Shown piece after piece: positions 3,744 to 49,686 of a stretch of DNA of 64,000 nt. The notes under the pieces are model-generated. The model did not search any database. It saw only the letters and a list, made by a program, of their open reading frames with translations, and was not told where the DNA came from. This DNA comes from a virus (taxonomy: Duplodnaviria; Caudoviricetes), in IMG/VR virus record IMGVR_UViG_3300021426_000067; one strand, given 5' to 3'. The position numbers and the translations under genes were made by a program. How positions within the stretch are numbered: the first letter of the stretch is position 1; each line of letters opens with the position of its first letter.

Positions 3744-5084
3744 ATGGCATTAAAGATAAAAGGACAAGTGGAAGATGCCAATGGGAAATGTAAATGTTAG
3801 AGATGCGGTAAGCGGATTGGTCAAATAAACTTTTATACTTATAAAGATGGTAGTAAATGTGAAATTTGCAAACCTTGTTTAACCGCACATATAGATAACT
3901 TTGATCCTACTACTTTTGAGTGGATTCTCGAAAAAATGGATGTACCTTTTATACCTACTGAATGGAATGTTCTTAGAGATAAGGCTTTTGCTAAAGACCC
4001 TTATAAAATGAATGGTATGTCTGTTATTGGAAAATATCTTGCAAAGATGAAATTAAAACAATGGAATAAATATGGATATGCAGATACTCCAAAAATTATG
4101 AAAGAGATGGAGTAGGAAGAAGAAAGAAAGAGAGTTGCTCAATAGACAGAAAGACTTCGCCATGAAGCTGAACTTAAAGTTAAGTTAAGTGAAGGAAAAA
4201 TTTCTCAGGCTTAGTATCAAACTCTTGTTAGCACAGAGACTCAAAATAAAGAGTTGGCGCGATGGGGTAATGCAATTACTGGAGAGCACTTAGGTCAGCC
4301 TGGATTCCAAGTTCACGGTTCCCCGCAATCTTATGCAGAAGCATTAAGTCGAGCAAAAAATCCTTTTCAATAGCAAAATTTCATGTCAGAGAGTTAGTTG
4401 ATTGACCCTGGCGCGGATTTAGAAAAAGATGAAAAAATGTATCTTGCGATTAAATGGGGAAGACTTTATACTCCCGCTCAATGGGTTGCTCTTGAGCAGT
4501 TGTATAATGAATTTATGAACTCTTTTGATATACAGGGCGCCGCCAGAATAGATACTTTGAAAAAAATTTGTAAAACATCTTTAAAGATGGATTAGGCTAT
4601 AGATAGCGGCGATATAGATTCATATCAGAAATTATCAAGAGTTTATGACACTATGATGAAATCCGCAAAGTTTACAGAAGCGCAGAATAAAGATGGTGAT
4701 GGTAAGAATATTGATTCAGCTTCTGCTATTGTAGATTTTGTTGAAGCTCATAGCGGACAAATTCCTCGCATGAAAATTGAAGAGCCTTTGGATATAGTAG
4801 ATAAAATTATTTTTGATTTAAAATCTTATACTCGAAACTTAATTTATGATGATCCTTCTCTTGCTCAAGAAATTGAAAAATATTTACAAGATAAAAGAAT
4901 TTCTGAACAAATGAAAAAAGATAAAGAGGAGGCTGCAGCTAAAGGATTAGATTATGTTCCATTGGAAGATTAGGATATGGTAGTTTATAAAGATACTTTA
5001 AGACATATGTCTGAAGAAGATAAAGAGTTAACTGATGAAAAAATCGAAACAGACTATGGGAAAAGGAGAGTACAACCTAAATGA
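3744..5084 (+). CDS. putative terminase small subunit / Zn-finger protein (8 in-frame TAG)
   Basis: 446 aa with read-through; N-terminal CxxC/CxxC; ATGA overlap with the large terminase. Confidence 0.55.
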
Positions 5085-6817
5085 ATTTAAAATAGTTATT
5101 ACAACTGTCTTCTGATAGAGAATATAAAAAACAAGGATTATCTGAAGAAAGATTAACTGCAGATATAGATGAGTTAAGAAGAATAATTGCTTTTTTTAGA
5201 GAGTATCCTGATATTTTTGTAGATTTTATTAAAGGCAAAGACAGTACCTTTAATTTTTTATTTTATCAAAGAATTTTTCTTAGAAATGTTATGCGGCATA
5301 GATATGTATATGCAACATTCCCTCGTGCTTATTCTAAGTCTTTCCTATCTATGATGGCTTTAATGATTAGATGTATTCTATATCCTAATTCCCATTTATT
5401 TGTAACAACAGGTGGCAAGGAGCAGGCAGCTTCTATTACTGTTGCTAAAATAGAAGAAATATGTAAATTAATTCCTGGATTAAATAATGAGATAAACTGG
5501 GATAGAGGTGTTTCTACTAAATCAAAAGATAATGTAAAATACGTTTTTAAAAATGGCTCAAGTATTGATATTCTTGCAGCAAGGCAATCTTCGAGAGGAC
5601 AACGTCGAACGGGCGGTCTGATGGAATAGTGTGTTCTTATTGATGGAGATATTTTAAATGAAGTTATTATTCCTACAACAAACGTTGATAGACGTTTATC
5701 AGATGGCAGCCGCCATAAAGAAGAGAACGTAAATAAATCTCAAATTTATATAACAACCGCAGGATGGAAAAATAGTTTTGCTTATCATAAGTTAATATAG
5801 ATTTTAATTAATTCAATAATATAGCCTGATTAGTATATGATAATGGGCGGAACTTATGAAACCCCAGTTATATCTGGTCTTTTGGACGAGAACTTTGTAT
5901 AGCAACTGCGCTTACAAGGAACTTTTAATGATTAGTCATTTAATAGATAGTACAGAAGTATTTGGTCAGGAGATGTAGAAAATGCGTTTTTCTCATCTGA
6001 AAAATTTGATAAATATAGAGTTTTATTACAACCAGAATATTAGTATAGCGGACGCTCATCTAAAAATGCGTATTATGTATTTGGAATTGACGTAGGCCGT
6101 GTGGGTTGTACTACAGAAATTTGTGTATTTAAAGTAACTCCGCAAGTACAAGGAGCTGCTCATAAGACTCTTGTTAATATTTTTACATATGATGCAGAAC
6201 ATTTTGAAACTCAATGTATTCATATTAAACATTTATATTATAAATATAAACCTAAACGAATTGCGGTTGATGCGAATGGATTAGGAGTTGGTTTAATTGA
6301 TTATTTAATTAAGTCTCAAGACACTGAGGATGGATAGTATTTACCTCCTTTTGGAGTTTTTAATACTAATGATTATCCTGAATATAAAAAGTTTGTAACT
6401 CCTGAGACTGTTAAAGATATTTTATTTTTAATCAAAGCTAACGCGCCCATTAATACTGAAGCATATAGCTATGCTCAAACTCAAATGTTTAGTGGTAAAA
6501 TTAGGTTTTTAATAGATGAAGGACAAGCTAAAACTAAATTAATGGCTACTAAGCAAGGGCAAAATATGAATATGGATGAGAGAAATGAATATTTAAGACC
6601 TTTTATTTTAACGTCTATTTTAAAAGAACAAATGTTAAATCTTGTAGAAGAAAATGAAGGAGTTAACATTATTTTAAAACAAAGCAATAGAAGTGTTAAA
6701 AAGGATAAATTTTCAGCTTTTATATATGGATTATATTATATCCGATATGAAGAAGAATTAAGTAAAAAACGAAAGAAAAGAAATATATCAGACTTTTTAT
6801 TTTTCACGCCAAGTTAA
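5081..6817 (+). CDS. terL: terminase large subunit (10 in-frame TAG)
   Basis: 578 aa with read-through; PRAYSKS Walker A, RG...GGLME*C Walker B, ITTAG, GIDVGR nuclease motif, DANGLG, KDKFSA. Confidence 0.9.
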
Positions 6818-6857
6818 GGTCAAGTTTTATTAATTCAATACGCGTTTTTTTATATAA
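6818..6857 (+). promoter_or_regulatory. putative phage late-promoter motif
   Basis: GGTC-N9-TAA-N13-TTTTTATATAA. Confidence 0.55.
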
Positions 6858-6875
6858 AGATAGAAAGGAGAAAAT

Positions 6876-7238
6876 ATGCGTGCATCCAGAGGAGAAATAA
6901 AAATAGAAGAAATTTTAAAAGAGTCTGGGTTAGAGTTCGCAGAAGAATACTCTTTTCCAGATTTAGTAAGTAACACAGGCCGCCCATTAAGATTTGATTT
7001 TGCGGTTTTTGATGATTAGCATAATCTTGATTTTTTAATTGAATTTCAAGGAATACAGCATTATGAAGCAAAAAGTAAATTTGGTGGGATGAATGGATTA
7101 AGAAAACAACAATATAATGACATGAGAAAAAGAGAATATTGTCGATAGCATGGGATTAAACTGGTTTTAATTCCCTATTGGGAATAGGCTATAATTACTT
7201 ATGATTATATTCTTAATGCGGCTTGGAATACAGATTAA
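6876..7238 (+). CDS. PD-(D/E)XK restriction-endonuclease-like protein (3 in-frame TAG)
   Basis: 120 aa; SRGE..IEEIL, LRFDFAV, LIEFQGIQHY, IPYW; absent from the standard-code ORF track. Confidence 0.75.
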
Positions 7239-7254
7239 AGAGAGGTATTTAAAG

Positions 7255-8847
7255 TTGATTAATCGAATGGCTTAGATAAAGAAAAAAGGCTTTAATATGC
7301 CGATTGAAACTGAAGAATACCAAATTCCTGAAAGTGCGAATGGATATGTTCCTATTGACTTTTCAAAAATTCGAGTGGGAGTAAAAACCTTATCAGATGC
7401 CGTTTATAAATTAGGAGATTTTCAAAGAATAAACCCTCGATTAGCAGATAAACGTCAGGTTTTAGAAGCTATTCATTATGGGGATTTAGAAAGAATGAGA
7501 GATATTTCTAATTATTTTTATAAAATCAGTGGTATTTATCAAAGGTTATGTCGATACATGGCATATATGTATAGATATGATTGGTTAGTAACTCCTTATT
7601 ACAGTGAGACTATGAAGCCAGAAAAAATAAAAGAAGGTTTTATGCAAACTTTAACTTTCTTAGATAAGTTTGAAGTAAAACGTTTCTTTGGTGAAGTTGC
7701 ATTAAAAGTAGTTAGAAATGGTTGTTATTATGGATATTTAATTGCTAAGAATGGGACAGTAGTAGTCCAAGAGCTGCCGCCCAGATATTGCAGATCCGTA
7801 TACATATCATCAAATCGGGAGCCTGTAGTTGAATTTAATATGAAATATTTTGATGATGCTTTTCCTTCTATTGAGTTAAGACAAAGAATCTTAAAAATCT
7901 TTCCTGCGGAATTTGAAAAAGGATATAAATTATATAAACAAGGGAAATTAAAACCTCAATATCCTGGAGATTAGGCTGGATGGTATTTACTTGAAGTTGG
8001 CTCTGTTATTAAATTTAATTTTAATGGGGAAGATTTTCCTCCTTTTATTGCAGTAATTCCCGCCATAATAGACCTTGACGCTGCGCAAGACTTAGACCGT
8101 AGAAAAATGGCACAACAATTATTGAAAATAATTATTCAAAAAATGCCTATTGATAAAAATGGTGATTTAATATTTGATGTGGATGAAGCTCAACAACTTC
8201 ATAATAATGCGGTTAAAATGCTTTCTAAAGCTATTGGTATAGATGTTTTAACTACTTTTGCGGATGTTGATGTGGCGGATATGGCTGATAATAAAACTTC
8301 TACTACAACAGATGAATTAGAAAAAGTTGAACGTACAGTATACAATGAAGCTGGTACTTCCCAAATGTTATTTAATACTGATGGAAACATCGCTCTTGAA
8401 AAATCTATTTTAAATGATGAGGCTTCAATGTGGAATTTGATTCAACAGTTTGAAACATTTTTAAACACTCTATTGACACCTTTTAATAAAAGTCCTAAAA
8501 AGGTTACTTATAGAGCGCAAATTCTTCCTACTACAATTTATAATTATAAAGAATTAGCTAAACAATATAAAGAACATACTCAATTAGGTTACTCAAAAAT
8601 GTTACCGCAAATTGCTTTAGGTCAATCTCAAAGTGCTATCTTAACTACAGCTTACTTTGAAAATGATGTACTTGATTTAGTTAATGTATTTATTCCTCCG
8701 CTAATGTCCAGCACAATGAACGCAGAAGTTCTCAATAGAGGAAAAACTGGAGAAAATGCGAATGGAAAAGAAGGCGCAGGAAGACCTGAAAAAGCGGATG
8801 ACCAAAAATCAACAAAGACTATTCAAAATCGTGAATCTATGAATTAA
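7255..8847 (+). CDS. portal protein (2 in-frame TAG)
   Basis: ~530 aa from TTG start with GAGGT RBS; fragments 7297..7974 and 8107..8847 share a frame; lies between terminase and protease. Confidence 0.8.
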
Positions 8848-8872
8848 GTCAGAAAATTTTTCCAAAAATTTT

Positions 8873-8913: not shown

Positions 8914-8940
8914 TATGAAGAAATAAGGGGGACTTATTTT

Positions 8941-10278: not shown

Positions 10279-10299
10279 TCTATTAGGAGGATGCTAAAA

Positions 10300-10899
10300 A
10301 TGGCAATTGTAATGAAAAGAATAGGTTATGGACAGGTTGAGCCTAACCACCTTTCTGGTATTGTGACTGGTCAAATTTATGCTCAATTACCTGCTCAGAT
10401 TGCTACAACAACAGGTACAGGAGATACTGCCGTTACTACTATAACTCCTATTGCTCAACTTGAGCAAGGACAATTTGCAAAATATGATTATGCAAATGGC
10501 GCGGTTAACTTTACCGGTGATGGTGAATTTATGCTTGTCTATAATGAAGAAAAACTTTATGATGAAAGACAACAACATCATAAGGATTTCGTTTATAAAG
10601 CTACTGATTTTACTGATGGAAAATTATTCCCTCGTTTAATCAGAACTTATGTTGGAGATATTATGACAACTAATACCCTTGCTACTGCTAATACTTCCAA
10701 TGTTGCTGAGGTAAATTCTTCCCTTAGCGTTTCCGTTGGTAATTATCTGACCGTTGATTCAAACGGTTTCTTAGTAGTTGCTCAGTCTGGCAACTCTGCT
10801 GCTACTACAATGCCTTCAAGTGGTATGGTTTGGAAAGTTGTTAAAGAATACACAATGCCAGATGGACAACCTGGTATTAAAATTCAGAGAGTGCAATAA
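10300..10899 (+). CDS. head decoration/minor capsid protein
   Basis: AGGAGG RBS; GYGQVEPNHL motif; directly upstream of the major capsid gene; no TAG. Confidence 0.6.
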   Translation: MAIVMKRIGYGQVEPNHLSGIVTGQIYAQLPAQIATTTGTGDTAVTTITPIAQLEQGQFAKYDYANGAVNFTGDGEFMLVYNEEKLYDERQQHHKDFVYKATDFTDGKLFPRLIRTYVGDIMTTNTLATANTSNVAEVNSSLSVSVGNYLTVDSNGFLVVAQSGNSAATTMPSSGMVWKVVKEYTMPDGQPGIKIQRVQ

Positions 10900-10922: not shown

Positions 10923-12011
10923 ATGGCATTAACAAGAGATCAACTTATTGAGTTAGCCAGAGCCAATGCGAGAGCTTCATTAAATCCTTCTGTCGCTTAC
11001 TCTTTTGGCGGAGAAAAACTGTCAGCAGAGGCACTGGATAAAACTTTTATTAAGGAGTTAAATGAATTAGGTGCAACTCCTCAAGCATTTAGAGAAAATA
11101 AAAATCTTATTTATACATTAATTGAAGTAAGCCTTACAGAGATTCTTCCGCCTAAGGTTCTTCAAAGCTACGGTCAATTCGCGGATGTTCAAACTTTTGC
11201 TCAAGGTACAAAACCTGTTTATAAAGTTAGAATTAGCGAGGCTTCTAAGAAACGTGCTAAACAATTCGTTACAAGAGTTGGTTTAGCTGGTCGTTATGAA
11301 GTCTTCAAACTTGATGGATATTCACTTGAAGTTCCTACAGCAGCTTTCGGAGGAGCTTCCAGGGTAGAATGGGAAGAACTTCTTGATGGTCGTATGACAA
11401 TGAGCGATTACTACAACTTAGTTCTTGAAGGAATGGACGAAGCTGTTTATCGTGAAATTGCGAAAGCTCTTGAAGCTACAGTTGCTGGTATTAAACCTGC
11501 AAATAAAACTGTCCAAACTGCTTTTAATGAAAAAGCTATGGATCAATTACTTATGACTGCAGATATGTATGGAAAGAGTTCAATTTATTGTACTTTTGAA
11601 TTTGCGGCAACTATGATTCCTGCAGCAAATAGTGGTATGTGGTCTGACAGTATGAAAGAGCAAATTTGGAACAATGGCGCATTTGCAAATTATAAAAACC
11701 ATTCAGTAATTATTCTCCCTCAATCTTTCACAGATGAGACTAATACTGAAAAAGTCATTGATCCTTCTTATGCTTGGATTATTCCTAATGGTGCGGAGAA
11801 ACCTGTAAAAGTTGCTTTTGAAGGTTCAGCACAAGTTAAATCATTTGAGAACCGTGACTGGTCAACAGAAATTCAGACATACCAAAAACTGGGTGTAGCT
11901 ACTTACATGATTAATCCTGGTATTTGCGTATATCAAAATACTTCTTTAAAGAAAGCTATCCATTATCCAATTGGATCTGATAACTTCGATCCCGTACCAG
12001 TTAATCCTTGA
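10923..12011 (+). CDS. major capsid protein
   Basis: 362 aa, strong RBS, position after protease, followed by terminator; no TAG. Confidence 0.8.
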   Translation: MALTRDQLIELARANARASLNPSVAYSFGGEKLSAEALDKTFIKELNELGATPQAFRENKNLIYTLIEVSLTEILPPKVLQSYGQFADVQTFAQGTKPVYKVRISEASKKRAKQFVTRVGLAGRYEVFKLDGYSLEVPTAAFGGASRVEWEELLDGRMTMSDYYNLVLEGMDEAVYREIAKALEATVAGIKPANKTVQTAFNEKAMDQLLMTADMYGKSSIYCTFEFAATMIPAANSGMWSDSMKEQIWNNGAFANYKNHSVIILPQSFTDETNTEKVIDPSYAWIIPNGAEKPVKVAFEGSAQVKSFENRDWSTEIQTYQKLGVATYMINPGICVYQNTSLKKAIHYPIGSDNFDPVPVNP

Positions 12012-16149: not shown

Positions 16150-16755
16150 ATGAAAAAAGATTTAGCTTTAAGACCAACTGATTTTACTTCATCTTTTTTA
16201 TCATGTGAAAAAGATTTAGAATCAATTTTAAGAAAATTGTTTGTAGAAAGTCAACCTTATAGTAATTAGCTAAAAAAATTATTAGTTATTAACACTAAGG
16301 ATTGTTTAGATAATAAAACCAGTTAGGTTTATAATAATGCAATAAAAGATATGAGTCTTGCAAAATTGCGGGAATAGGGTTATATTAAATTTGAACCTAA
16401 AGTAAAAATGCCAGAACATGAAGATATAAAAAGTTATTTAATTTTTTCTTTTGATAATTTTAAATCTAATTATAATAATCCTCAATTTAGAGATTGTAAT
16501 GTTTATATTGATGTTCTTTGTCATACTGACTATTGGGATTTAGGAGGTTTTAGGCTTAGACCTTTAAAGATTTGCGGTTATATTGATGGCATTTTAAATA
16601 ATGCGCGTTTATCAGGAATTGGAATGTTTCAGTTTTCGGGATGTAATGAATTAGTTCTTGATGAAACTCTATCTGGTTATACATTATCTTATGCCGCTAT
16701 TCATGGCACAGACGATGTTTTACCAAGTCAGCATAATTGGGTGAAGAATGGTTGA
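16150..16755 (+). CDS. putative tail completion/terminator protein (3 in-frame TAG)
   Basis: 201 aa; FD.F..N..NPQFRDC...D.LCH...W...RP motif; position. Confidence 0.55.
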
Positions 16756-17500
16756 TGAATTACTTTTATTATCAGGTAATGATATACCCTTTCCCGAAGC
16801 AAAATTAACGATTCATCAACCGCGTTTAAAAGAAATTGCATATCTTACTTAGACTAACTTTTGGCCAAGCTGTTAGTTATTAAAATTTAATAAAGAATCT
16901 TTAATAGATTAGGACAGAATTGGATTAACGAATATGTCAAATTTTAATATAATAATGACGATAGTTCAAGGGAAAGATTTAGAAGCAAGACAAGCAAAAA
17001 TAAATATGCTTTCTCTTTTGACTTTATTATTTCCTACAAGCGAGATTATTTTAAATAAGAAAGTAATTCAAATACGAAATGTTTAGACTGGTGAAACAAG
17101 TTAGATTAATTAGTAGAATTATGATTCTTTTAAAAAAATCTTAGTTACAATGTTTTGTCTCACGAATAAAGATAATGAATAGTATAATCCAAGCGGTGAC
17201 TTAGCTCGTAAAATTGCTAATAAAATTAAGCAAGGTAGAGAGCAAAGGGCGAAGCTGGCGCCAGAAGGTAAAGTTGCTATTTTAAGTCGTTATGTATCTA
17301 TTCTTGCTGTTGGTTAGCAGAAAGATATGAATGACTTAATGAATTATACTGTTTATCAACTCATGGATGAATTTAACCGTTTTAATTTAAAACTTCAATA
17401 TGATTCTTGGTAGAAATTTAAAATTGCGGGAGCCACAGGGATGAAAGATCCAGAAGATTGGCTAAAAGACATTCATGAAATAATAAATAATGAAACATAA
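16748..17500 (+). CDS. hypothetical tail-assembly protein (10 in-frame TAG)
   Basis: 250 aa, visible only with read-through; MVDELLLLSGNDIPF...IHQPRLKEIA...YQLMDEF...AGA. Confidence 0.7.
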
Positions 17501-35789: not shown

Positions 35790-37331
35790 TTAAAATGCAC
35801 TTTCCTCTATTGGCATAACATTAATTTTTAAATCTTCAATACTAATCAATTCATAATTATAATTAGTAGCAAAGATAGGATTAATTCTACAAATTCCTCT
35901 ATCAGCTCTACACCAAAGTAATATATCTTTATAGCGGCCGCGCCTATTTTTATATACAGAAATCTTTATACTTGGCATTTCAATACCCATCGTATCTATA
36001 ATATTTTTTAAAGATTCTCTATCATCTTGACTAACTTGTAACATAATCATACCACAGTCAATTTTATCCGCAATAGCTTTAGCACCTCTCAAAAGATTTT
36101 GATCGTATTGCTGTGCTGAAACATAATCAGCATTTAACTGAGTAGCGGACATAATAAAAACGCCATATTGATTACAAAGATCTTTTAATCTGACGCTAAT
36201 CATAAAAAGAATATTATCTTCTCTAAGTCCTTTGACACCCGCTTTTGAACTAATTTCACTAAGAATCTTCATACTGGAATGAATATAATCCATAAAGACA
36301 TATCTAATACCATATTGTCGAATACCAAATTTTATAGTATTTTCAATATCTTGTAATGAAAAATCTGGTAACTTTTTAATATATAAAGGACTTTTTAAAA
36401 GAATTGCGGCGGCCTCATTAACACGCTCCCATTCATCGCCGGTATAAGTGTTTTCTAAGATATGATCTTCATTAACCCCAGAAAGAAAAGAAATCATCAT
36501 TGTTTGAATTTCATCTTCTTCTTGTTCTGTTGTTATAAATTGAGTAGGTTCACAAGTTCCATTGTCTTCCCATTTTCTTGTTTCAAGATTATAAATTTTA
36601 TCACAAGCTATAAAACAAGCATCCGCAATCATAGAACGAGTCTTTCCTACACCCGTAGCCGCAGATCGCAAATAAAACTTTTTTAATCTGGCTCCTCTAT
36701 GAACTGCATTAATCAATTTTCCATATAAAGGATAACCAACTTCTGGATTATCTTTTAATCTTTGTAAAAGAGCTGCCGCGCCTTCTCCCGCCTGAATAAC
36801 TCCATCTTCTGAGTTATCGACATATTTTGCTTTAATTTTTTCTATTCTATCGTTAATAACATTAGCTATATCTCCAATAGAAGTATTATCAAACCATGTT
36901 TCTTGCGCTTCTTTCTTTTTTACATCTAATATATTGTCTGGGTCATAAAGCCAAGATAAATCCATTCCTACAGATTTATTATACATTCTTAATAATGTCA
37001 TTTTTTTCATTCGATTATAATAATAATCAAAAGCCGCAAGTTGACACATTTCTTTAAGATTAGCTAAATATTCTGACCCTTTATTTATTTTATATACAGC
37101 ATATTTTTTTGGTCTTTGCTCTAAATATTTCTCTATATCATCTATTGTTATTTGTTTTGCTCCTAATTGATGCAGATTATAAATAGACCCAAATAAAATT
37201 TTATGAAACTCTTGCGGAAAGTCTTGTTCATTAAATTTATATTTATCTTCTAAATCTAATAAAGATGGATTAATAAATACATCACCTATTACCTGCATAT
37301 TTGCTGAAGTATCAACATATTTTGAACCCAT
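35790..37331 (-). CDS. DnaB-like replicative helicase
   Basis: SAATGVGKT, FITTE, FMDYI, SATQLN, KNRRG. Confidence 0.88.
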   Translation of the reverse strand: MGSKYVDTSANMQVIGDVFINPSLLDLEDKYKFNEQDFPQEFHKILFGSIYNLHQLGAKQITIDDIEKYLEQRPKKYAVYKINKGSEYLANLKEMCQLAAFDYYYNRMKKMTLLRMYNKSVGMDLSWLYDPDNILDVKKKEAQETWFDNTSIGDIANVINDRIEKIKAKYVDNSEDGVIQAGEGAAALLQRLKDNPEVGYPLYGKLINAVHRGARLKKFYLRSAATGVGKTRSMIADACFIACDKIYNLETRKWEDNGTCEPTQFITTEQEEDEIQTMMISFLSGVNEDHILENTYTGDEWERVNEAAAILLKSPLYIKKLPDFSLQDIENTIKFGIRQYGIRYVFMDYIHSSMKILSEISSKAGVKGLREDNILFMISVRLKDLCNQYGVFIMSATQLNADYVSAQQYDQNLLRGAKAIADKIDCGMIMLQVSQDDRESLKNIIDTMGIEMPSIKISVYKNRRGRYKDILLWCRADRGICRINPIFATNYNYELISIEDLKINVMPIEESAF

Positions 37332-37932: not shown

Positions 37933-38982
37933 TTATTCTGACGGCGTTTCCTTGGAAAGCTGGATTAGGTCATCGCAAATCAGAGACAGGGCCTCTACTT
38001 GTTCACGAGAACATTGATTTATCTTTTGACCGCGTCCTAAGTATCGCTCAATAATCTGAGTAATTCGGGGTTGGTAGTATTTATCAAAAACGCCTGACTC
38101 AGAATAATTATCTAACATTGATTTGATTAAACTATTGCATTTACCTATAATGTCATCAAAATTCAATTCTTTTGTTGTATCTTGATAAAGATTACTTTTT
38201 TCATTAGTAAAATACTGTTCGCCATCTTCTTCCGCTTGTTTATCAATAGCTTCACTAATGGCATCTACTAAATTATTATAAGAAAAATCAATATATGGAG
38301 GAGTGTATTTAAAACGACTACCAGCTTCATATCTTGGAGTTCCTCTCATAAATAACTTAGTGGAACTTTTACCTTCTTTATCAGTAACAATTCTTGAATA
38401 ACCGATTATATCAGACATTCTTGCAACGATGTTATTGGCTCTTTTGTCAAGAGTTGGGACAATTTTATTATATTCATTTCCATTCTAATCTTTAAAAACT
38501 TTATCAGTAGCATGAGAAATAAGAATAAGTCCATAATCCATCATTACAATAGAACGCAAACATTCATCAAATTCTTTTGATACCATGCTGTATCCCTTAC
38601 CAAAAGGAATATCACTAATACTGTCTACTCCAAATCCACCACCTTGTTCTTGTGTTCTTGGAGCGTTATCACAAATATATTTTGTACAATAATCATAAGC
38701 TATATCACAGGTATCAATAGTAATTGTATAATATTTCTATTTAGCTCTTGGGTCTTTTAATTGGCGTAGAACTTTTCTAAAGTCCGCCCAGTTATTAATA
38801 GGCTGTGCCATAATTCCTGGAATTGCATTATATCCTTTTTCAAAAGCTAAGAGTAAATTTTTCTAAAACTTTGATGCAGTTGTTGTCTTGCCGCTCTTTG
38901 GTTCTCCATAAAAGAATATAGAATATCCACGAAGATTTCTACTTACCTGATGCGGCTAAATATTAAAAATATCAATTGCCAT
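37933..38982 (-). CDS. AAA_24/Sak4-like ATPase (4 in-frame TAG)
   Basis: 349 aa; YGEPKSGKTT, LAFEKG, ITIDT, LISH, DIIGY, AGSRF. Confidence 0.8.
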
Positions 38983-40525: not shown

Positions 40526-41392
40526 TTATTCTTCATCATAAAAAATTAACTCATTAGCATAAGGCAAAGACTTTGCCCATTTTATAAAATTATCTTTAGA
40601 AGAATCATCTTTACCGCTCCATTCATTAAGTTTATGATTCATTCTTTGATGACAAATTGTACGAATTACTTCATAATTAGCCGTCCATGTTCTGGTTTGA
40701 AGCCAGCTCTCGGGTAGCCACCGCACAAGTTCTTTCCAATATCTTTTATCTTTTGTTTCAAGATATTTTTGACGAAGAAATTCAAGTTGTTCAATCATAA
40801 AATCAGATAACATCCCAATATCATTACCTGCAAGTTTGCCTGCATATGTTGGGATACTGTAATATATTAAATCAGAATTCATATCATCTGTTTCAAAACA
40901 ATCAAGAGTAATAGGGTTACTTGTTAATTTGTGCATAGTAGAAGTGCTGTTAGCAACTGTTCCTACTTTATATGTATCCATCTATTTCCACCAATATAAA
41001 GGTGCAGTAATATCAACAGATACAAAGATTTGACGTAAGAATTTACGATGTTCTGGTCCACCTTTAATAAGAGTCTGAGCAAGTTTTAAATCATTAGGTC
41101 CAATAAAAGCATTATCTCTATACTGATAATCTTTAGATTCTTTTAAAACTCCTTCTGCAATTAACCAATCGCAATATTTATTTTCTAAATCAAAAAATTC
41201 TTTAGTATCTTCCTATCCATTCCATTCGGGATGATTTTGATAAACCCAAGCATTAGCTACATCAAGAACCCCTTCATCATAATCATCCGTAATATTAAAA
41301 TAACTATCACTTTTATTCCAACTATTTTTAGGGTTTCTCATTCCTCTAATGGCGTGTTCAAAACCCCAGACCTATGTATTTTCAAATTTCAT
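40526..41392 (-). CDS. ThyX-like protein (3 in-frame TAG)
   Basis: 288 aa; AIRGMRNP, EHRKFLRQI, APLYWWK*MDTY, STSTMH, LPESWLQ.R, QR.NHKL.EW. Confidence 0.7.
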
Positions 41393-41395
41393 ATT

Positions 41396-41656
41396 TTAAT
41401 CTCCTAAATTTGTTTTTATCGTAATAGAATTATTAGATATATCACTGCCATTAATAGTATATGGATTATTTGAATCTGCTTTAATGGTAGTGGTAGTAAG
41501 TGGAGTGGTAATAACTGAAGGGGAAGAACAAGTCCACCAATGCGAATAATTTCCGCGGTTATATCCTTCCCAATAACTTTCATTTAAAAGCTACTCTAAT
41601 TCTTTTTTTGTTAATTCTATTTTTCCATTTTTATTTAATGTAAATACTTTAATCAT
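41396..41656 (-). CDS. hypothetical protein (1 TAG)
   Basis: MIKVFTLNKNGKIELTKKELE*LL... Confidence 0.6.
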
Positions 41657-42579
41657 AATGTGTTATTTCCTTTCGTTGAATTATAGCCAAATTTATTACT
41701 TTGATACATGTCTATCCAGAATTTTTCTTTTTCATTTAATAAATTTCTCTAATGGATTTGTTCTAATAATTCAAAAGAAAAGTTCCAAACACCATATTTT
41801 TGCATAGCATTATAAAGTTTATTTGTTGCGGATGCGTCAATTCCTAAACCACATTTACAATGTTGTTTCCAGCGGTCAGCAACGTTCACGCTTTGACCTA
41901 TATAAGCCTATTCTGTTAATAAATTTGTAATTTTATAAATACCACAAACAGATTCTTTTCCTAAAACTCTATCACATAATTCATTCATTTGCTTTTGAAA
42001 ATATTGTGTCCAGATTAATTTACTTAAAATAACTGGTTTATGTAAAGTTGATTTTAAATTTTCTAAAACTTTAACATCTGACAAATCAGTTTCATTAATA
42101 AATAATTTATAAAAATTTATTTTTTCTTTTTTTTCTTGCTCGCGGAGACGAGCTTCAACACCCGCGCTTAAAGAAGATCTTATTTTATCTATTTCCGCCT
42201 GTATTTCCATTTTCTATTTTTTTGCTGATTCTCTAATATTATTTAAATCAGTATGAATCTGAGTTATTTCAGCATATGCCGCATTATTAGCTTGTTGTAT
42301 TTTAATATCAAAAATTTCTTTTCTTGCGGCTAAATCTTCATCAATTCTATTTTTCTATTTTTCAAATTGCTATTCAATAGATTTAATTTGTTCTTGTTTA
42401 GATGTAATTGTTGCTGATAAGTTTAAATTTTGGTTAGCTAATTGATTTGTCTATTCAGCTAATTTCTAATTATATTGCTATTGCTATTCATTTTTTTGTA
42501 GTATTGTTCGTTGTCCTTTAAAAAAAAGGAAACAACCAATAATAAATAAAATAACACTAAGAAAATTTACTACTATCAT
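41653..42579 (-). CDS. membrane-anchored coiled-coil GIY-YIG nuclease (multiple in-frame TAG)
   Basis: 308 aa; N-terminal hydrophobic helix, coiled coil, GIYKITN...YIGQS..RWKQH...GYN. Confidence 0.75.
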
Positions 42580-42651
42580 ATTTTCTCCATATAAAAACAA
42601 GGGTTAGAAATAAAATTCTAACCCTTATCAAGTCTTAACAATGAAAGGAAA

Positions 42652-43158: not shown

Positions 43159-45117
43159 TCAGTTTTCAAGGTAATGCTTTATGAAGTCTGCTTCTGATAG
43201 GATTGGTATACCTCGTTGTTTAGCTGCATTATTCTTAGCTGAATTACTATTTACATCATTGTTAATAAGTAAATCAGTTTTTCCTGTAATAGAACTTCCA
43301 ACTTTTCCGCCAGCTTTTTCAATAATAGATTTTAATTTGTCTCTATTTTTAAAATTTGTAAGTTTTCCAGTAATAACAATAATTTTTCCTTGTAAATTAC
43401 TATTTATTAAAGTGTTGTTTACAACAGGGGTTTCAATAATTAAAATTTTAGAAATTCTATCAGCTTCAGAATAATCAAAAGTTTTTAAGAAATTATCCAT
43501 TTCTATGCCGAAATTAGGTAAGTCATAAAAATGATATTCCTTATCTTTTACAGCATTACGGAAATCTTCATAAGTTTTAAATTCTTTAGCTAAATCTGCT
43601 GCAACTGTTTTTCCGATAAAAGGAATACCGATAGCAGAAATAAACGCATTAAGAGTTGTATGTTTATGTTCTTCTATTGATGCAAGAATTTTGTCAACAG
43701 ATTTAGTACCAAAGCCACTTTTATTAATCCATTCATTTCTATGGGCGGCAAGGGTAAAAACATCTTCTATATTATTTACCCAGCCCCAATCAATAAGTTT
43801 TTCAAAAGTTGCTTTTGAAAGTCCTTTTATATCAAGTCCTTTCTTTCCGCAAAAATGGTCAAGTCTATTGATTAACTTACCTCCGCATTGAGGATTAGTA
43901 CAATATAAAACCTCACTATCAATATCTTTTCTTATTTCTGTTGGCTGACCGCAATATGGGCAAATCTTGGGGATTTCAATCATTGGAATATTGTTAGGAT
44001 TATCTTCCTGTGCGCTTTCAACCTGTGGAATAATTTGATTAGCTTTATAAATAAAAACTTTCTGACCAGGATAAGCGCCACCCATAAGCTGTACCATAAC
44101 GCTAATATTATGTAAACTTGCTCTATTACAGATTGCTCCATCAATTTCAATATCTTTATAAATTAAAACAGGAGTAAGCTGTCCAGTTCTTCCCATAGTC
44201 CATTCAATATCTTTGACTTCTGTTTCATAAGATTCATCATAGAATTTATATGCCAAACCGCCCTTGAAGTGGTGGTCTGTGCGGCCTGCCGCCTCATAAT
44301 CTTTAACATTATCATATTTAAATACAACTCCGTCAATAGGGTAGCCTTTCTCTTTTGCTCTATCTTTAATATAAGTTATTGGTATATTAAGAGAATTAGC
44401 TTCTTTAATTTCTTCATCTATAATATAAGGTACTATATTAAAGCCAAGAATTTGTAACCCTATTAATTTAACGAATAATGAAGCCGCCTCTTCTTCTGCT
44501 TCTATTATATCCCAAGCCACAAAAGTTAATTTTCTTTTTTTACATTCTTTTGAATCTAATAATCTTATACTTCCACTTGCAAAATTACGAGGATTTTTAT
44601 AATCTTTTTTAAATGATTCAAAATCTTCATAAGTACAAATAATTTCTCCATCAATGATTAATTCTTTTTTATATTTGATTTCATTAGGGATAGATGAAAT
44701 TACTAAAGCATTATGAGTAACATCTTCCCCTTCTATACCGTTTCCTCTTGTTTCTGCGGAAACCAGTTTTCCATCAACATAGCGTAATGAACAAGTTAAA
44801 CCATCCATTTTTGCCATAGCAATCCATTCATGTCCTTTTATAAAAGATTCTACTTCTTTTATATTTTTTGTTTTATTAAGGGAAAGCATTGGATGATTAT
44901 GTTTAACTTTTTTTAATTCAGAAACTTTTTTAAAATGGATTTTATGAGTAGGAGAATTTTTAAAAAAGAAATCACATTCTTCTTCCAAAGTTTTTAATTC
45001 AAAATAAAGATTATCCCATTCTTCATCTGTCATTGTGGGAGTTCCTTTATCATATTCCTCTGTTGCTTTATTTAATAAAATTGTTAATTCTTTAATTCTT
45101 AAAATTCGTTTATCCAT
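43159..45117 (-). CDS. ligA: NAD-dependent DNA ligase
   Basis: HPMLSL, KMDG, TRGNG, NPRN, DGVV, GRTG, Zn finger, BRCT. Confidence 0.95.
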   Translation of the reverse strand: MDKRILRIKELTILLNKATEEYDKGTPTMTDEEWDNLYFELKTLEEECDFFFKNSPTHKIHFKKVSELKKVKHNHPMLSLNKTKNIKEVESFIKGHEWIAMAKMDGLTCSLRYVDGKLVSAETRGNGIEGEDVTHNALVISSIPNEIKYKKELIIDGEIICTYEDFESFKKDYKNPRNFASGSIRLLDSKECKKRKLTFVAWDIIEAEEEAASLFVKLIGLQILGFNIVPYIIDEEIKEANSLNIPITYIKDRAKEKGYPIDGVVFKYDNVKDYEAAGRTDHHFKGGLAYKFYDESYETEVKDIEWTMGRTGQLTPVLIYKDIEIDGAICNRASLHNISVMVQLMGGAYPGQKVFIYKANQIIPQVESAQEDNPNNIPMIEIPKICPYCGQPTEIRKDIDSEVLYCTNPQCGGKLINRLDHFCGKKGLDIKGLSKATFEKLIDWGWVNNIEDVFTLAAHRNEWINKSGFGTKSVDKILASIEEHKHTTLNAFISAIGIPFIGKTVAADLAKEFKTYEDFRNAVKDKEYHFYDLPNFGIEMDNFLKTFDYSEADRISKILIIETPVVNNTLINSNLQGKIIVITGKLTNFKNRDKLKSIIEKAGGKVGSSITGKTDLLINNDVNSNSAKNNAAKQRGIPILSEADFIKHYLEN

Positions 45118-45193
45118 TATTTTCTCCTTTTTTTATATAAAAATATTATAACATATTTTTTATAAAAAATCAAAAAAGAGGGGCGACCCCTCT

Positions 45194-47539
45194 TTAAAAT
45201 TTTACAACAGAGGAAATATTAGATTTTATCATAATATTTCCATAACTGGTTCTGGTTAATAAAGGTAAATCTGATGCGGTAATACATATAGAATTAGGCT
45301 GGCCTGTAAGAAGAACTGTATCAGAGTTAGATACGACAAAGGCTCCCGCAATATTTCCATAAACTACGCTTGGTTTATAAATTACAAGACCTTTTCCGCC
45401 ACGTCCTTGTACATTAAATTCTTTAACAGAAGTCTTTTTACCATATCCTTTTGTTGAAAATATAGCAATCTGATCTTTATCAGAAGAGATAGGGAGTCCA
45501 ACAACAACCTCGTCATCTTCATCTAATTTAATAGTTTTTACTCCTGCCGCAACTCTGCCAATAGGATTGACATTTTTACTTTCAAAATGAATTGACATTC
45601 CATTCTTAGTAATAACTAAAATATTTTCTTCATTGATAAATTCTACATTTGCAATAGAATCACCTTCATTAATTTTAATTGCCGCAATTCCCGTACTTCT
45701 TTTTACTTTTGTATATTCTTCAAGATAGGTTTTTTTCATTAAACCTTTTTTAGTAAAGAATACAACATATTTAGCAGTATTGCTTCTGGCAAGAGAGGTG
45801 ATAGCAATAACTTCATCATTTTCATCCATATGAATTAATGTACCCACATGAGTTCCTTTTGAAGCATTTGTTCCAACCGGCACTTCATCTACGATAATTT
45901 TATACATCTTACCTTTTTTAGTAAAAAGAAGAAGATTATCAATAGTATTAGTAGAAATGGTAGACATTACTACATCATCTTTTGTTTTTATGCCTTTCCC
46001 ATTTTTGCGCTGTACCTTAAAAGATTTTGTAGGTACACGTTTAATATCACCAGATTGAGACAATATAACAACGCAATCTTCTGGAACAACTTCTTCAATT
46101 TTTTTCTCTTCAGGTTTGATGTCAATATGAGTTAATTCAGTGCGGCGAGCATCTCCATATTTGTTAACCAGTCCTTGAAGCCGTACTTTAAGAATTCCGA
46201 TTTGCTCATCTCGACTATCTAAAATCTGATTAAGCATAAAAATTTTATCTTTTAAATCTTCGGCTTCTTTTTCTAATTCAACTTTTTCAAGTTTTGCAAG
46301 AGAAGAAAGTCTCATAGCTAAAATTGCTTTAGCTTGATTTTCTGTGAACTGATATTTTTTAATTAATGCTTCTTTTGCGGCAGCCGCACTTTCAGAACTT
46401 TTAATCAGCGCTATAATGTTGTCAATATCTTCGAGTGCCCGCAGTAAACCATTAACAATTTCAAGTCTATCAATAGCTTTGTTTAAATCAAATTGAATTT
46501 CTCTTACAATACAATTAATATTAAAATCAACATAAACTTTGATACAATCTTTAAGATTTAGTTCAGTTGGTACTTTATCAATAAGAGCAACTTGATTATA
46601 ACTAAATGAACTTTGAAGATTTGTTTTTGAAAATAACTTATTTACGATACTGATGGGATTAATTTTTTTATCACATTCAATAACAATTCTAATACCTTTT
46701 TTATTAGATTCGTCACGAATATTCTCAATTCCTTCAATTTCTTTTGAATCAGCAACTTCGCCAATTTCTGCCATTAATCCTTCAACAGTAGTTCCATAAG
46801 GAATCTCAGTAAAGATAATTTTTCGTTTATCAATTTCATACTTACCGCGGACTTTTACACTTCCATGGCCAGTTCTCATAATAGTTGGAATATCTTTTGA
46901 ATTAATAATAATTCCACCCGTAGGAAAATCTGGTCCAGGAAGCATCGGTTCTTCTCCCGCTAAATATTGATTAATTGCGGCAGCTACTTCATTTAAATTA
47001 TGGGGTGCCCATGAGCAAGCCATAGCCACACCAATTCCGCTGTTAGGATTACAAAGTAAATTTGGGAAGATGCTTGGTAATGAAATTGGTTCTTCTGTTG
47101 TTTCATCATAGTTTGGAAGGAAATCAACATTATTTTTCTTTATACCTTGAAGTAATCCATCTTCAGCAAGTTTACTCAATCGACATTCAGTATAACGCAT
47201 GTGAGCAGGTCCATCGCCAATAATATTACCATTATTCCCATGAAAATCAATTAATGGATAACGCATAATCCAATTTTGTGATAACCGCACTAACGCGCCA
47301 TAGATAGATGAATCTCCATGTGGATGATATGTACCCATAATATCACCCACAAGTTTAGCTGCTTTTACATGAGGTTTTTTTGATACACATTTAGTTTTAT
47401 CTTCAGCTCCCCATAAAATGCGTTTAGCAACTGGTTTAAGACCATCTTTAGCATTAGGTATAGCACGGTCAGTATTCACGGCAACCGCATATTCTATAAA
47501 ATTTGTTCCTAATTCTTTTGTTAAATCATTCTGCATCAT
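45194..47539 (-). CDS. gyrA: DNA gyrase subunit A
   Basis: DGLKPV, YHPHGD, AHMRYTE, GPDFPTGG, beta-pinwheel repeats with QRKNGKG. Confidence 0.92.
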   Translation of the reverse strand: MMQNDLTKELGTNFIEYAVAVNTDRAIPNAKDGLKPVAKRILWGAEDKTKCVSKKPHVKAAKLVGDIMGTYHPHGDSSIYGALVRLSQNWIMRYPLIDFHGNNGNIIGDGPAHMRYTECRLSKLAEDGLLQGIKKNNVDFLPNYDETTEEPISLPSIFPNLLCNPNSGIGVAMACSWAPHNLNEVAAAINQYLAGEEPMLPGPDFPTGGIIINSKDIPTIMRTGHGSVKVRGKYEIDKRKIIFTEIPYGTTVEGLMAEIGEVADSKEIEGIENIRDESNKKGIRIVIECDKKINPISIVNKLFSKTNLQSSFSYNQVALIDKVPTELNLKDCIKVYVDFNINCIVREIQFDLNKAIDRLEIVNGLLRALEDIDNIIALIKSSESAAAAKEALIKKYQFTENQAKAILAMRLSSLAKLEKVELEKEAEDLKDKIFMLNQILDSRDEQIGILKVRLQGLVNKYGDARRTELTHIDIKPEEKKIEEVVPEDCVVILSQSGDIKRVPTKSFKVQRKNGKGIKTKDDVVMSTISTNTIDNLLLFTKKGKMYKIIVDEVPVGTNASKGTHVGTLIHMDENDEVIAITSLARSNTAKYVVFFTKKGLMKKTYLEEYTKVKRSTGIAAIKINEGDSIANVEFINEENILVITKNGMSIHFESKNVNPIGRVAAGVKTIKLDEDDEVVVGLPISSDKDQIAIFSTKGYGKKTSVKEFNVQGRGGKGLVIYKPSVVYGNIAGAFVVSNSDTVLLTGQPNSICITASDLPLLTRTSYGNIMIKSNISSVVKF

Positions 47540-47780
47540 TTATAACCTCATAATTTACTTCTAAAGGAGCACCCCAATCTTCTATCCTATAATCATCTAT
47601 AATTAAATCTAAATCGCATAAAAGATCTTCTTCATCAAGAAATTTCATAGAATTTTCTTTTAATCTTTGAAGTTCCTCTTCTGTTAATTCTAAAATACCT
47701 TCTTTATGTCCATAACGTAAATACCCAAAAACATAATCTAATGGAATATTAAATTTTACTTTTATTGTTTTATTCTGCAT
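47526..47780 (-). CDS. hypothetical protein between gyrB and gyrA
   Basis: GYLRYGHKEG; overlaps both gyrase genes. Confidence 0.6.
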   Translation of the reverse strand: MQNKTIKVKFNIPLDYVFGYLRYGHKEGILELTEEELQRLKENSMKFLDEEDLLCDLDLIIDDYRIEDWGAPLEVNYEVINDAE

Positions 47781-49686
47781 TATATGTAGCCTCCGCACTA
47801 TGTTCTTTAATATATCTTTTTCTTGGCATAACTAAATTACCCATTAAATCATTAAAAAGTTTATTAGCCGCTGTAACATCTTCAACAGTAATTTGTTTAA
47901 TAATTCTGTTATTTGGATCTGTAAGAGTTTCTTCAATCTCTTCAACGTCCATTTCACCAAGACCTTTCATACGACCAATCTGACTTGTTTTTCCCCTATT
48001 TTCTTTTTGAAACTCAGCTAATGCTTCATCATTTTTAAGATATTTATAGCCTTTATTTGCAGCAAGAGTAACTTTATAAAGAGGGGGAACGCCTGCATAA
48101 ACATATCCATCTTTAACTAAATCTGGACAAAAGTTCCATATAAACGTATAGAAAAGATTTTTAATATGTGCTCCGTCAACATCTGCATCTGACATAATAA
48201 TTATCTTACCATATCGGACTTGATGATAATTTACTTTTAAAGTTTTAGGATCAATAGACCAGTCTCCAGGTCCAAAGAAAGCATCACACATTGTCATAAT
48301 TTCTGCATTTTTTTGAATTTGTGCAAAAGTAGCTTTCTGTGTATTAAGGATTTTACCACGAACAGGAATAACTGCCTGAAATTCATTATCACGAGCAAGT
48401 TTTAACATACCTGCCGCACTATCTCCCTCAACGACATAAACTTCACATTTATCTCTTCTTTCAGAATAACAATCCGCAAGTTTAGTGTCAAATTTAAGTG
48501 CTTTTTGTTTCTTTTTATTCTGTTCTCTTGCTTTATCTCTTGCTTTCTTCGCGGCGTCTCGTGCTTTACGTGCGGCAGCCGCCTTCTCAAAAATTAATTT
48601 TACTTCTTTTTCATTATTATTAAACCAAATATTTAAATTTGTGCTTAATGCAGAAGTAAAAGGAGTCATATCAATTTTTGTAACTCTGCTTTTGACCTGG
48701 GCATCATATCCTACATTTGGGGCTGTAATATTAAATACTACATACATTCCCTCTTGAATATCATCACCAGTTAAATTTGCATCTTTTTCTTTTAACCATT
48801 TTTTCTCTTTAAAGAATTTATTAAATTCCCTTGTAATAACAGTTTTAATCTGAGTGATATGTGGTCCAGATTCAGTCAAGCCTGTATTGACATAGGGAAC
48901 AATAGTAGAAGAATAATTGCTTGTATATGTGAAAGCCATATCAAGTTTATTTTTACCTTCTGAAAAATTCATTGAAAAACGATTATCAAGAAGTTCTGCA
49001 TTTTTATTTACAACATTATTTATTAAGTCATGGATACCATTTACAGAAACAAAAATGATTGGTGCTTCATTATTATATTGTAAATTGATAGTTAATCCAG
49101 GGCATAAACTTACAATAGTTTGAAATAAATCTTTAATTTTATTTATTTCGACTTCTGTATGTGTAAAAAATTCTCCTGAAGGTTTCCATTCAACAAGAGT
49201 ACCAGAAACACCTCCCGCACCAGTTGTTCTATTAGAAAAAACACCTTCTTCAAAATATACTTCTTCCCATTGTGAATCTCTCATTGTTTTAACTCTTAAC
49301 CAATGAGAAAGAAAAGTAGTAATTTTAGAACCAATACCAAAAGAACCTAATGAAGTTCCTTCATAAGTTCCATCTTCTCGATATTTACCTGATGTATTTA
49401 ATACACTGAAAGCTGCTTCAAGAATAGTTTTTCCATCTTCTCTAAATGAATTTGGAATAAAACCTTGTCCATAATCTCGGACTGCAACCATATCTCCAAT
49501 TATTGTTACATCAATTTTATTTCCATGTCCAAGTCGATATTCATCAACTGCATTAGAAATAATTTCAACTAACAACTGAGTTGAATATGTACAATCACCG
49601 GCATATACTTGAGGACGAAGTCTTGTAAATTCAAGAGGACTTAAACTTTCAATACTCTCTTCTGTATATAAATGTTTATCGTTCAT
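47770..49686 (-). CDS. gyrB: DNA gyrase subunit B
   Basis: EIISNAVDE, VEGDSA, PVRGKILN, MSDADVDG, KGLGEM. Confidence 0.92.
   Translation of the reverse strand: MNDKHLYTEESIESLSPLEFTRLRPQVYAGDCTYSTQLLVEIISNAVDEYRLGHGNKIDVTIIGDMVAVRDYGQGFIPNSFREDGKTILEAAFSVLNTSGKYREDGTYEGTSLGSFGIGSKITTFLSHWLRVKTMRDSQWEEVYFEEGVFSNRTTGAGGVSGTLVEWKPSGEFFTHTEVEINKIKDLFQTIVSLCPGLTINLQYNNEAPIIFVSVNGIHDLINNVVNKNAELLDNRFSMNFSEGKNKLDMAFTYTSNYSSTIVPYVNTGLTESGPHITQIKTVITREFNKFFKEKKWLKEKDANLTGDDIQEGMYVVFNITAPNVGYDAQVKSRVTKIDMTPFTSALSTNLNIWFNNNEKEVKLIFEKAAAARKARDAAKKARDKAREQNKKKQKALKFDTKLADCYSERRDKCEVYVVEGDSAAGMLKLARDNEFQAVIPVRGKILNTQKATFAQIQKNAEIMTMCDAFFGPGDWSIDPKTLKVNYHQVRYGKIIIMSDADVDGAHIKNLFYTFIWNFCPDLVKDGYVYAGVPPLYKVTLAANKGYKYLKNDEALAEFQKENRGKTSQIGRMKGLGEMDVEEIEETLTDPNNRIIKQITVEDVTAANKLFNDLMGNLVMPRKRYIKEHSAEATYNAE

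Follow-up and report, generated by a model that had tools for sequence, protein, structure and literature searches.

Gene-specific use of TAG, apparently as a glutamate codon, in a partly recoded phage lineage

Phages that reassign a stop codon in only part of their genes have been described by Borges et al. (bioRxiv 10.1101/2021.08.26.457843, later Nature Microbiology), who reported early and replication genes in the standard code and structural and lysis genes with the recoded stop. They called use of the alternative code in the replication machinery "variable", saw only TAG-to-Gln and TGA-to-Trp reassignments in phages that differ from the code of their host, and found a preferentially recoded tail tube family in their crAss-like set. 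Metaproteomic data support the existence of alternatively coded gut phages (Peters et al., PMC9523058). The nearest described relative of the DNA studied here is Phass-1 (Phassvirus; Babkin et al. 2023, PMC10607447), a siphovirus-like TAG-to-Gln phage of ~135 kb with a very long tape measure, a tRNA array that includes Sup-CTA, and TAG in 28% of its open reading frames (ORFs); the paper holds no analysis of which genes avoid TAG. Here, we analyse the use of TAG in 64 kb of DNA of an uncultured gut or rumen phage, from IMG/VR virus record IMGVR_UViG_3300021426_000067 (hereafter, the window), whose portal and capsid are 37% and 51% identical to those of Phass-1. A sequence-only reading had proposed that TAG is distributed over its genes as a switch of translational timing or stoichiometry. 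We find that TAG aligns with glutamate, that its use falls into three tiers of genes, and that these tiers are conserved among relatives.

The window has ~31% G+C, with uniform base composition throughout. Over 21.5 kb, it matches ENA contig ERZ12302851 NODE_96 (137,851 bp) at 100% identity. Translation with table 11 breaks many conserved genes, which are restored when TAG is read as sense; terminase, portal, RecJ and a 2,823-aa tape measure are then full length. We used our own simple ORF calls with TAA and TGA as the sole stops, giving 68 genes and 20,358 codons. For comparison, we took the 80 closest loci (41 recoded, 39 standard-code) of the 255 relatives present in IMG/VR, and four relatives whole, of which three are recoded (G001, G003, G004) and one uses the standard code (G005). 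Counts pooled below over "four genomes" or over the 41 recoded loci come from related genomes, and their cells are not independent.

Opposite the TAG codons of the window, the 80 related loci have GAA (854), GAG (273), TAG (272), GAT (199), AAA (120), CAA (110) and CAG (23). Conversely, where relatives have TAG, the window residue is Glu in 738 cases, Asp in 83 and Gln in 76. Glu is the majority residue at 33 of 49 TAG positions and at all 11 of the 11 that are strongly conserved; for example, at the terminase TAG at 5627-5629 (...GGLME[TAG]CV...) Glu is present in 54 of 55 relatives. A likelihood test of TAG meaning, with substitution frequencies drawn from the same alignments, favoured Glu over Gln by 43 log units with the standard-code relative G005 and by 61-74 with G001, G003 and G004. 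Applied to Phass-1 as a control, the test returned Gln, 10 units above Glu, as published; hence, it can tell Glu from Gln. Genetic code 15 would have TAG align with Gln in standard-code homologues, which is not the case here. We conclude from these alignments that TAG is a glutamate codon in this phage, and that Glu codons, as the sequence-only reading had assumed, are the right denominator for measuring its use. The three recoded relatives G001, G003 and G004 each encode one tRNA(CUA), whereas standard-code G005 has neither a tRNA(CUA) nor any in-frame TAG. We found no release factor gene and no GluRS or GlnRS gene in the four relatives; the absence of these synthetases suggests that a host enzyme must charge the suppressor.

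Across the 68 genes, TAG accounts for 147 of 1,643 Glu-like codons, beside 1268 GAA and 228 GAG, so that TAG/(TAG+GAR) is 0.089. Gene length and Glu content might produce an uneven spread by themselves. We therefore shuffled TAG over all Glu-like positions, which controls for both. The observed chi2 was 175, compared with 60 +/- 11 under the null and a null maximum of 129 in 20,000 permutations, and 41 genes were free of TAG where 19 were expected. Thus, the strongly non-random distribution that the sequence-only reading had noticed persists after conditioning on length and composition. The share of TAG is 0/80 in the small genes at the left edge, 116/826 (0.14) in the late blocks and 31/737 (0.04) in the DNA-metabolism block (20536-51495, minus strand). 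The last is itself heterogeneous (chi2 119 versus 34): nearly all of its TAG codons lie in RecJ (7), an AAA_24 ATPase (4), the gene at 40526-41392 (3) and a GIY-YIG endonuclease (9).

Genes of core replication carry no TAG. DnaE (DNA polymerase III alpha; 25161..29081; 0/96), the anaerobic ribonucleotide reductase NrdD (22359..24299; 0/39), the RecD-like SF1 helicase (29993..31174), the primase and DnaB-type helicase (34372..37331, with two small, likewise TAG-free genes between them) and the NAD-dependent ligase LigA, GyrA and GyrB (43159..49686), all on the minus strand, together comprise 5,293 codons with 377 Glu codons, none of them TAG (hypergeometric P = 2.8e-18). This bears out the earlier remark that these eight replication and nucleotide genes lack TAG over more than 5,000 codons. 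The absence extends to relatives: pooled over four genomes, TAG is found at 0/396 Glu-like codons in DnaE, 0/208 in GyrA, 0/202 in LigA, 0/179 in GyrB, 0/150 in DnaB, 0/109 in the RecD-like helicase, 0/103 in primase and 0/99 in a YorF-like gene, that is, at 0/1,446 in these eight genes together. At the left edge, nine small genes without an assigned function (25..2428, minus strand; TAG 0/80) are probably the end of an early region; their orthologues are TAG-free in G003 and G004.

The late block (2556-20493, plus strand) holds a putative sigma factor, a gene in the small-terminase position, the large terminase TerL, an HNH endonuclease, the portal, the capsid region, neck and tail genes and the tail tube. 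Its TAG-free genes in the window include those for three proteins or positions: the major capsid protein (10923..12011), the gene directly upstream of it, putatively in the scaffold/protease position (10291..10899), and the major tail (tube) protein (17533..18486), which was identified by tblastn to Bacillus phage major tail/tail tube proteins. The capsid has a predicted HK97 fold (AlphaFold2 pLDDT 75; Foldseek matches to many phage capsids, E ~1e-7). In the four-genome pools, TAG is found at 2/108 Glu-like codons of the capsid, 1/78 of the tail tube and 0/43 of the 10291 gene; in recoded loci the counts are 5/573, 6/117 and 4/308 (29 loci), respectively. Over the 41 recoded loci, the three genes together have 15/998, compared with 1341/8580 (0.156) for the other late genes. 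The proposal that abundant proteins avoid TAG is thus upheld for capsid and tail tube, in the window and beyond it. It fares less well elsewhere. A candidate decoration protein (12095-12667; identity putative) lacks TAG in the window, as had been claimed, but has 3/20 and 3/18 in relatives. The holin had also been listed as TAG-free, but this phiLC3-type protein (TIGR01598; two transmembrane segments; 50381..50668, minus strand) has no Glu codon of any kind, so that the absence says nothing, and its orthologues in G003 and G004 carry TAG at 1/1 and 1/2 of their Glu-like codons. The holin gene stands alone within the DNA-metabolism block, between PNK and RNase H and far from a recognisable endolysin; in G004, a TAG-rich 761-aa gene adjoins its orthologue.

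Our proxy for expression was how often codons for Asn, Asp, Phe, Tyr, His and Ile end in C. A final C in the codons for Phe, Tyr, Ile and Asn is reportedly a mark of translational selection in highly expressed genes. The same three late genes rank first to third in the window by this measure: the tail tube at 0.33 (z = 6.1), the capsid at 0.23 (z = 3.2) and the 10291 gene at 0.20, against a mean of 0.12. Ranking orthologues of window genes in relatives, the top three in standard-code G005 are again tail tube, capsid and 10291 gene; in G004, the tail tube and 10291 gene are within the first three and the capsid is sixth, and in G003 the tail tube and 10291 gene are within the first five. A genome-wide "rare codon" index was uninformative: the rare codons of this AT-rich genome are those ending in C or G, which are slightly commoner in the bulk virion genes. 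TAG is thus depleted in the genes that bear a signature of high expression, and its avoidance there fits, as far as codon usage can tell, the ordinary kind of translational selection better than it fits a stoichiometry switch. Replisome genes show no C-ending bias (DnaE 0.12, GyrB 0.10, DnaB 0.07), and hence high expression does not explain why they avoid TAG; translation before the suppressor is available is the obvious candidate.

At the other extreme are genes in which TAG is common. Packaging and tail genes use it for 15-40% of their Glu-like codons across the four genomes. The earlier list of TAG-dense genes proved correct: the putative small-terminase-position gene upstream of TerL (3744..5084) has 8/46, TerL (5081..6817) 10/45, a conserved virion-module gene of unknown fold matching phrog_4051 (16748..17500) 10/24, the tape measure (52250..60721) 44/280 and a 56-aa gene (60767-60937) 4/9, all on the plus strand. 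The phrog_4051 and 56-aa genes are the two most TAG-dense in the window. The tape measure and the 56-aa gene belong to a second late segment, of tape measure and tail genes, from 51886 onwards; its large tail gene at 61043, which runs off the window (60767..64000 with the 56-aa gene), has TAG at 13/77. Four-genome counts are of the same order: 46/181 for TerL (0.22 in recoded loci), 39/102 for phrog_4051, 188/931 for the tape measure and 77/318 for the tail gene at 61043. The HNH homing-type endonuclease (6876..7238, plus strand) has 3/14, and 0.215 pooled over 40 recoded loci. The portal (7201..8847, plus strand) has 2/38, and 0.138 pooled over recoded relatives. Structural genes use the recoded codon, as does the holin in relatives; the exceptions are the capsid, the tail tube and the 10291 gene.

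TAG is also found in genes that are neither structural nor lytic. A putative sigma factor (2556..3677, plus strand), assigned by a PHROG match only (phrog_5767, E 1.4e-42; no Pfam, NCBIfam or PDB sequence match), has TAG at codons 59, 138 and 199. Its share is 22/135 in four genomes and 0.194 in recoded loci, and it is TAG-free in 0 of 24 recoded relatives. On the minus strand, inside the replication block, the RecJ-like exonuclease (31748..33520) has 7 TAG codons (26/157 in four genomes), and the AAA_24 ATPase (37933..38982) has 4, with 0, 2 and 2 in relatives. Three consecutive genes at 40526..42600 also carry TAG: a phrog_6721 gene (3), an 86-aa gene (1) and the GIY-YIG endonuclease, of group-I-intron type (TIGR01453; 9, and 31/110 in four genomes); a terminator-like hairpin lies upstream of this trio at 42629-42596. 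The idea that core replication can run on the host code while packaging and tail assembly need a suppressor therefore survives only in part: the replisome is readable in the standard code and the late genes are TAG-rich, but a split between replication and assembly is too coarse, since RecJ, AAA_24, two homing-type endonucleases and the putative sigma factor all carry TAG.

The gene-level pattern is more durable than the sites that make it up. At Glu-conserved sites of TAG-bearing genes, 24-42% of window TAGs are also TAG in a relative, against a background of 12-19%. TAG sites thus turn over fast while the gene pattern is kept, which argues that the pattern is held by selection and not by descent. 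The same pattern is found in Phass-1, with its TAG share measured against its Gln codons. There, DnaE (0/57), GyrA (0/24), GyrB (0/12), capsid (0/15) and tail tube (0/2) are TAG-free, and RecJ (6/24), phrog_4051 (6/13), HNH (3/6) and tape measure (44/123) are TAG-rich, phrog_4051 being the most TAG-dense mapped orthologue with more than six such codons. Over 22 orthologues, the per-gene TAG rankings of the window clade and Phass-1 are correlated (Spearman 0.70, P = 3e-4). By portal identity, the standard-code relatives fall between the window and Phass-1, closer to the window; because of this position, the Glu and Gln recodings look independent. In four recoded loci (L056, L057, L061 and L076), portal identities are within the range of the standard-code group, and there may have been more than one gain or loss of recoding among the 80 loci.

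We consider that selection on a conditionally readable Glu codon, in three tiers and with late gating as a consequence, probably explains these observations. TAG would be readable only when the phage's own suppressor tRNA, with a CUA anticodon, is present. Small early genes and replisome and nucleotide genes would be translated by unmodified host machinery and so would tolerate no TAG. The capsid, tail tube and 10291 genes would be kept nearly TAG-free because reading through a stop is likely to be costly or risky in the most translated genes. In the remaining genes, that is, those for packaging, tail, recombination and nuclease functions and the putative sigma factor, TAG would be a nearly neutral synonym of GAA and GAG, drifting to 10-40% of Glu codons. 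Near-neutrality in this last tier is suggested by the high turnover of sites, by a nucleotide 3' of TAG that resembles the one after GAG, and by the absence of an excess at the 5' ends of genes. Proteins of this tier would not be completed until the suppressor accumulates, which would create an early/late translational gate whether or not the gate itself is selected for. The location of suppressor genes is suggestive in this respect: that of G004 is part of a tRNA array with TAG-free small genes around it, with no clear promoter before it in that genome, and Phass-1 has two Sup-CTA tRNAs directly after nrdD, in a TAG-free block.

Several observations weigh against this explanation. The portal is a low-copy protein and yet is TAG-poor in the window (2/38), and phrog_4051, at 0.38, and the never TAG-free putative sigma gene exceed what drift would lead one to expect, which hints at positive selection. 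The codon-bias proxy is weak in G001, which gives no clear signal, and among late genes the correlation between C-ending bias and TAG share is negative and non-significant in any single genome (rho -0.10 to -0.41). "Early" and "abundant" are assigned from gene function and codon bias. Finally, the suppressor tRNA is known from three relatives, the window itself having no tRNA gene in its 64 kb, and the isotype of that tRNA is only moderately supported by its sequence.

A possible, on balance doubtful, alternative is an active timing switch, in which TAG is kept in certain genes so as to delay their proteins, for example those of a host-transcribed late sigma mRNA and of the recombination and nuclease genes. 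Promoter-like sites bear on this idea. On its coding strand, the DNA-metabolism block has four TTGACA-17-TATAAT sites that are perfect (12/12), at 33585-33557, 29332-29304, 37902-37874 and 40081-40053. The site at 29332-29304, ahead of DnaE, is sigma-70-like; that at 33585-33557, ahead of RecJ, has an extended -10 and a -35 inside a terminator-like hairpin (33598-33571). The putative sigma gene has a host-type site, TTGACA-17-TATACT, just upstream. Perfect or near-perfect host-type sites thus precede TAG-free operons and also precede RecJ and the putative sigma gene, which nevertheless bear TAG. If these sites act early, TAG would delay RecJ and the putative sigma factor at the level of translation, an idea that is suggestive only.

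A timing switch would also account for the fact that the putative sigma gene is TAG-free in none of the 24 recoded relatives, for the use of TAG in the holins of G003 and G004, and for the richness in TAG of phrog_4051, RecJ, homing endonucleases and tape measure in both the Glu clade and Phass-1. It further agrees with the preferential recoding of intron endonuclease and lysis genes reported by Borges et al. However, a single early TAG would suffice to delay a protein, and the sequence-only reading had indeed stressed TAG in the first 10 codons. Its instances are real and have good ribosome-binding (Shine-Dalgarno) sites, but they are not enriched: six window genes have a TAG there, against 3.9 +/- 1.6 expected (P = 0.16, within-gene permutation), and the odds ratio pooled over four genomes is 1.04. 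Gating by early codons is therefore not borne out; a weak excess in the window shows up only when the first 50 codons are counted (P = 0.026). Most TAG sites are unconserved, the nucleotide 3' of TAG shows no tuning, and AAA_24 is TAG-free in G001. Moreover, the same convergence with Phass-1 would be expected if those genes merely tolerate TAG. In a stronger form, which we regard as rather unlikely, TAG share would be an evolved, gene-specific layer of translational control, convergent in the two recodings, that delays the sigma factor, recombination nucleases, homing endonucleases and phrog_4051; TAG-free status would then mark genes read before the suppressor is available, together with the bulk virion proteins.

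We think it improbable that TAG acts as a stoichiometry rheostat, in which the yield of a protein is its read-through efficiency raised to the power k, for k TAGs per gene, so as to match virion copy numbers. Such a rheostat would fit the near-absence of TAG from the two highest-copy virion proteins and its presence at 44 codons in the tape measure, of which a virion has few copies, and at 10 in terminase. However, a tape measure with 44 TAGs would need a per-codon read-through of ~0.95 or more, at which 2-10 TAGs would change yield only modestly. The portal, which has 12 copies in known tailed phages, is TAG-poor, and small neck and tail genes are TAG-rich. The conserved quantity is the share of TAG per Glu codon rather than the count of TAGs, and avoidance tracks ordinary codon bias. 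Hence, the stoichiometry half of the proposed switch is not needed, given a TAG-poor low-copy portal and the near-complete read-through that the tape measure would imply.

A mosaic origin, in which TAG-free genes came in recently from standard-code phages or hosts and have had too little time to gain TAG, is very improbable. Replisome genes do have cellular homologues, but the TAG-free genes have collinear orthologues in G001, G003, G004 and G005, and partly in Phass-1, that are as diverged as the late genes; over the same divergence the late genes have swapped most of their TAG sites, and base composition is uniform across the window. The view that TAG is a genuine stop, with TAG-bearing genes being split genes or pseudogenes, can practically be dismissed: it is favoured by the standard-code ORF map only, and is already refuted by alignments that cross TAGs with Glu opposite, as well as by the full-length terminase, portal, RecJ and tape measure restored by read-through, the 41 related loci that behave alike and the three relatives with a CUA tRNA.

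The suppressor tRNA of the relatives has C1-G72, G2-U71, A73 and a 9-nt D loop. When its body was compared with the phages' own tRNAs, no isotype stood out; compared, outside the anticodon arm, with the tRNAs of two metagenome-assembled genomes (MAGs) that hold related phage contigs, it placed tRNA-Glu first or tied first, with small margins. The 17-nt anticodon arm, GCGGTCTCTAAAACCGC, is found in 49 IMG/VR viral contigs on ~40 different tRNA bodies, including the Gln-like suppressor of Phassvirus. Because so many bodies carry it, the arm is uninformative on tRNA identity, and its recurrence suggests that one arm has been convergently selected for amber suppression. In addition to its tRNA(CUA), G001 has a tRNA-like gene whose anticodon is UUA (ochre) and whose acceptor stem is weak (90222-90296; locus L115 is G001 80001-100000), and a similar odd tRNA-like gene is present in a standard-code relative (L200:10726-10797).

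Related phage contigs are also present in MAGs of Bacillota, the link to a host being by binning only: L195 in Clostridiales RUG816, L199 in an Acutalibacteraceae MAG and L196-L198 in rabbit-gut Bacilli. The Clostridiales and Acutalibacteraceae contigs are recoded, with a TAG-free capsid, and the Bacilli contigs use the standard code. RF1 is present in all four MAGs; the two Bacilli MAGs lack GlnRS and have GatB. Relatives and the phiLC3-type holin make Bacillota the suspected hosts. We considered whether a host without GlnRS might let a Glu-charged suppressor escape amidation. The evidence is mixed, since the Bacilli MAGs without GlnRS carry standard-code relatives and GlnRS is present in the Clostridiales MAG that carries a recoded one, and, host links being by binning only, we did not adopt this idea.

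The nucleotide genes of the DNA-metabolism block comprise dUTPase and NrdG/NrdD; its replisome genes DnaE, the RecD-like helicase, primase, DnaB, LigA and GyrA/B; its recombination and nuclease genes RecJ, AAA_24, the GIY-YIG endonuclease and RNase H; and the others PARG, the holin and PNK. The predicted structure of the phrog_4051 protein (AlphaFold2 pLDDT 77) gave no Foldseek match in the PDB at E < 0.001 and only unnamed proteins in a viral library, and a wide VIA-align search gave Z of 5.2 at most. The HNH gene overlaps the start of the longest portal ORF. Judging from alignments to relatives, in which the first aligned portal residue is 9-19, translation of the portal probably starts near 7237. 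In two window genes, 29721-29990 (minus strand) and 14826-15155 (plus strand), TAG comes at or close to the end (...ATT TAG TAA and TAG AAT TAT TAA); these codons may be genuine stops with another stop as backup, or may encode a terminal Glu. Past the ends of orthologues in G001, G003, G004 and G005, the first stop-like codon is rarely TAG, with 1/32 even in standard-code G005, and TAG stops may have been depleted in the lineage before reassignment.

These phages share much with those of Borges et al. Recoding is partial, with early and core replisome genes in the standard code, variable use of the alternative code within the replication machinery, and the virion module recoded; a suppressor tRNA is present (here, in relatives) without a dedicated synthetase; homing endonucleases are strongly recoded; and the same translational early/late gate is proposed. 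They differ in that TAG aligns with Glu, in that tail tube and capsid avoid TAG, unlike in the crAss-like set, and in that no release factor gene was found in the four relatives. The timing reading is thus the published Borges model, extended to a new amino acid and with its causes more clearly told apart. With Phass-1, the window shares the same broad phage lineage and the same per-gene TAG ranking, but TAG fits Gln in Phass-1, by both the published account and our likelihood test, and Glu in the window clade. The Phassvirus-type suppressor (on a 138,252-bp contig) has a different body from that of the window clade, beginning with UGGGG and having G73.

As in ordinary translational selection, the late genes that avoid TAG are those with the strongest C-ending bias; here, however, the codon avoided is a reassigned stop, in competition with release factor, and the penalty is probably a truncated protein and not just slow decoding. 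Decoding as glutamate itself has eukaryotic counterparts. NCBI tables 30 and 31, the nuclear codes of peritrich ciliates and Blastocrithidia, read TAA and TAG as Glu. Those codes are genome-wide and include TAA, whereas the recoding described here is viral, concerns TAG only and affects part of the genes.

For annotation, the identity of the amino acid matters, since table 15 would put Gln at catalytic Glu positions, for example at the Walker B-like site of the terminase. Prior evidence for the timing of late genes by recoding came from which genes carry the codon in a few TAG-to-Gln or TGA-to-Trp clades. The lineage described here is a natural replicate, with a Glu branch, a standard-code sister and a distant Gln branch, in which both recoded branches place TAG in the same genes. 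It thereby pulls apart two forces that tend to be confounded: a complete ban on TAG in genes that would be read before the suppressor is available, and a quantitative avoidance in what appear to be the most translated genes.

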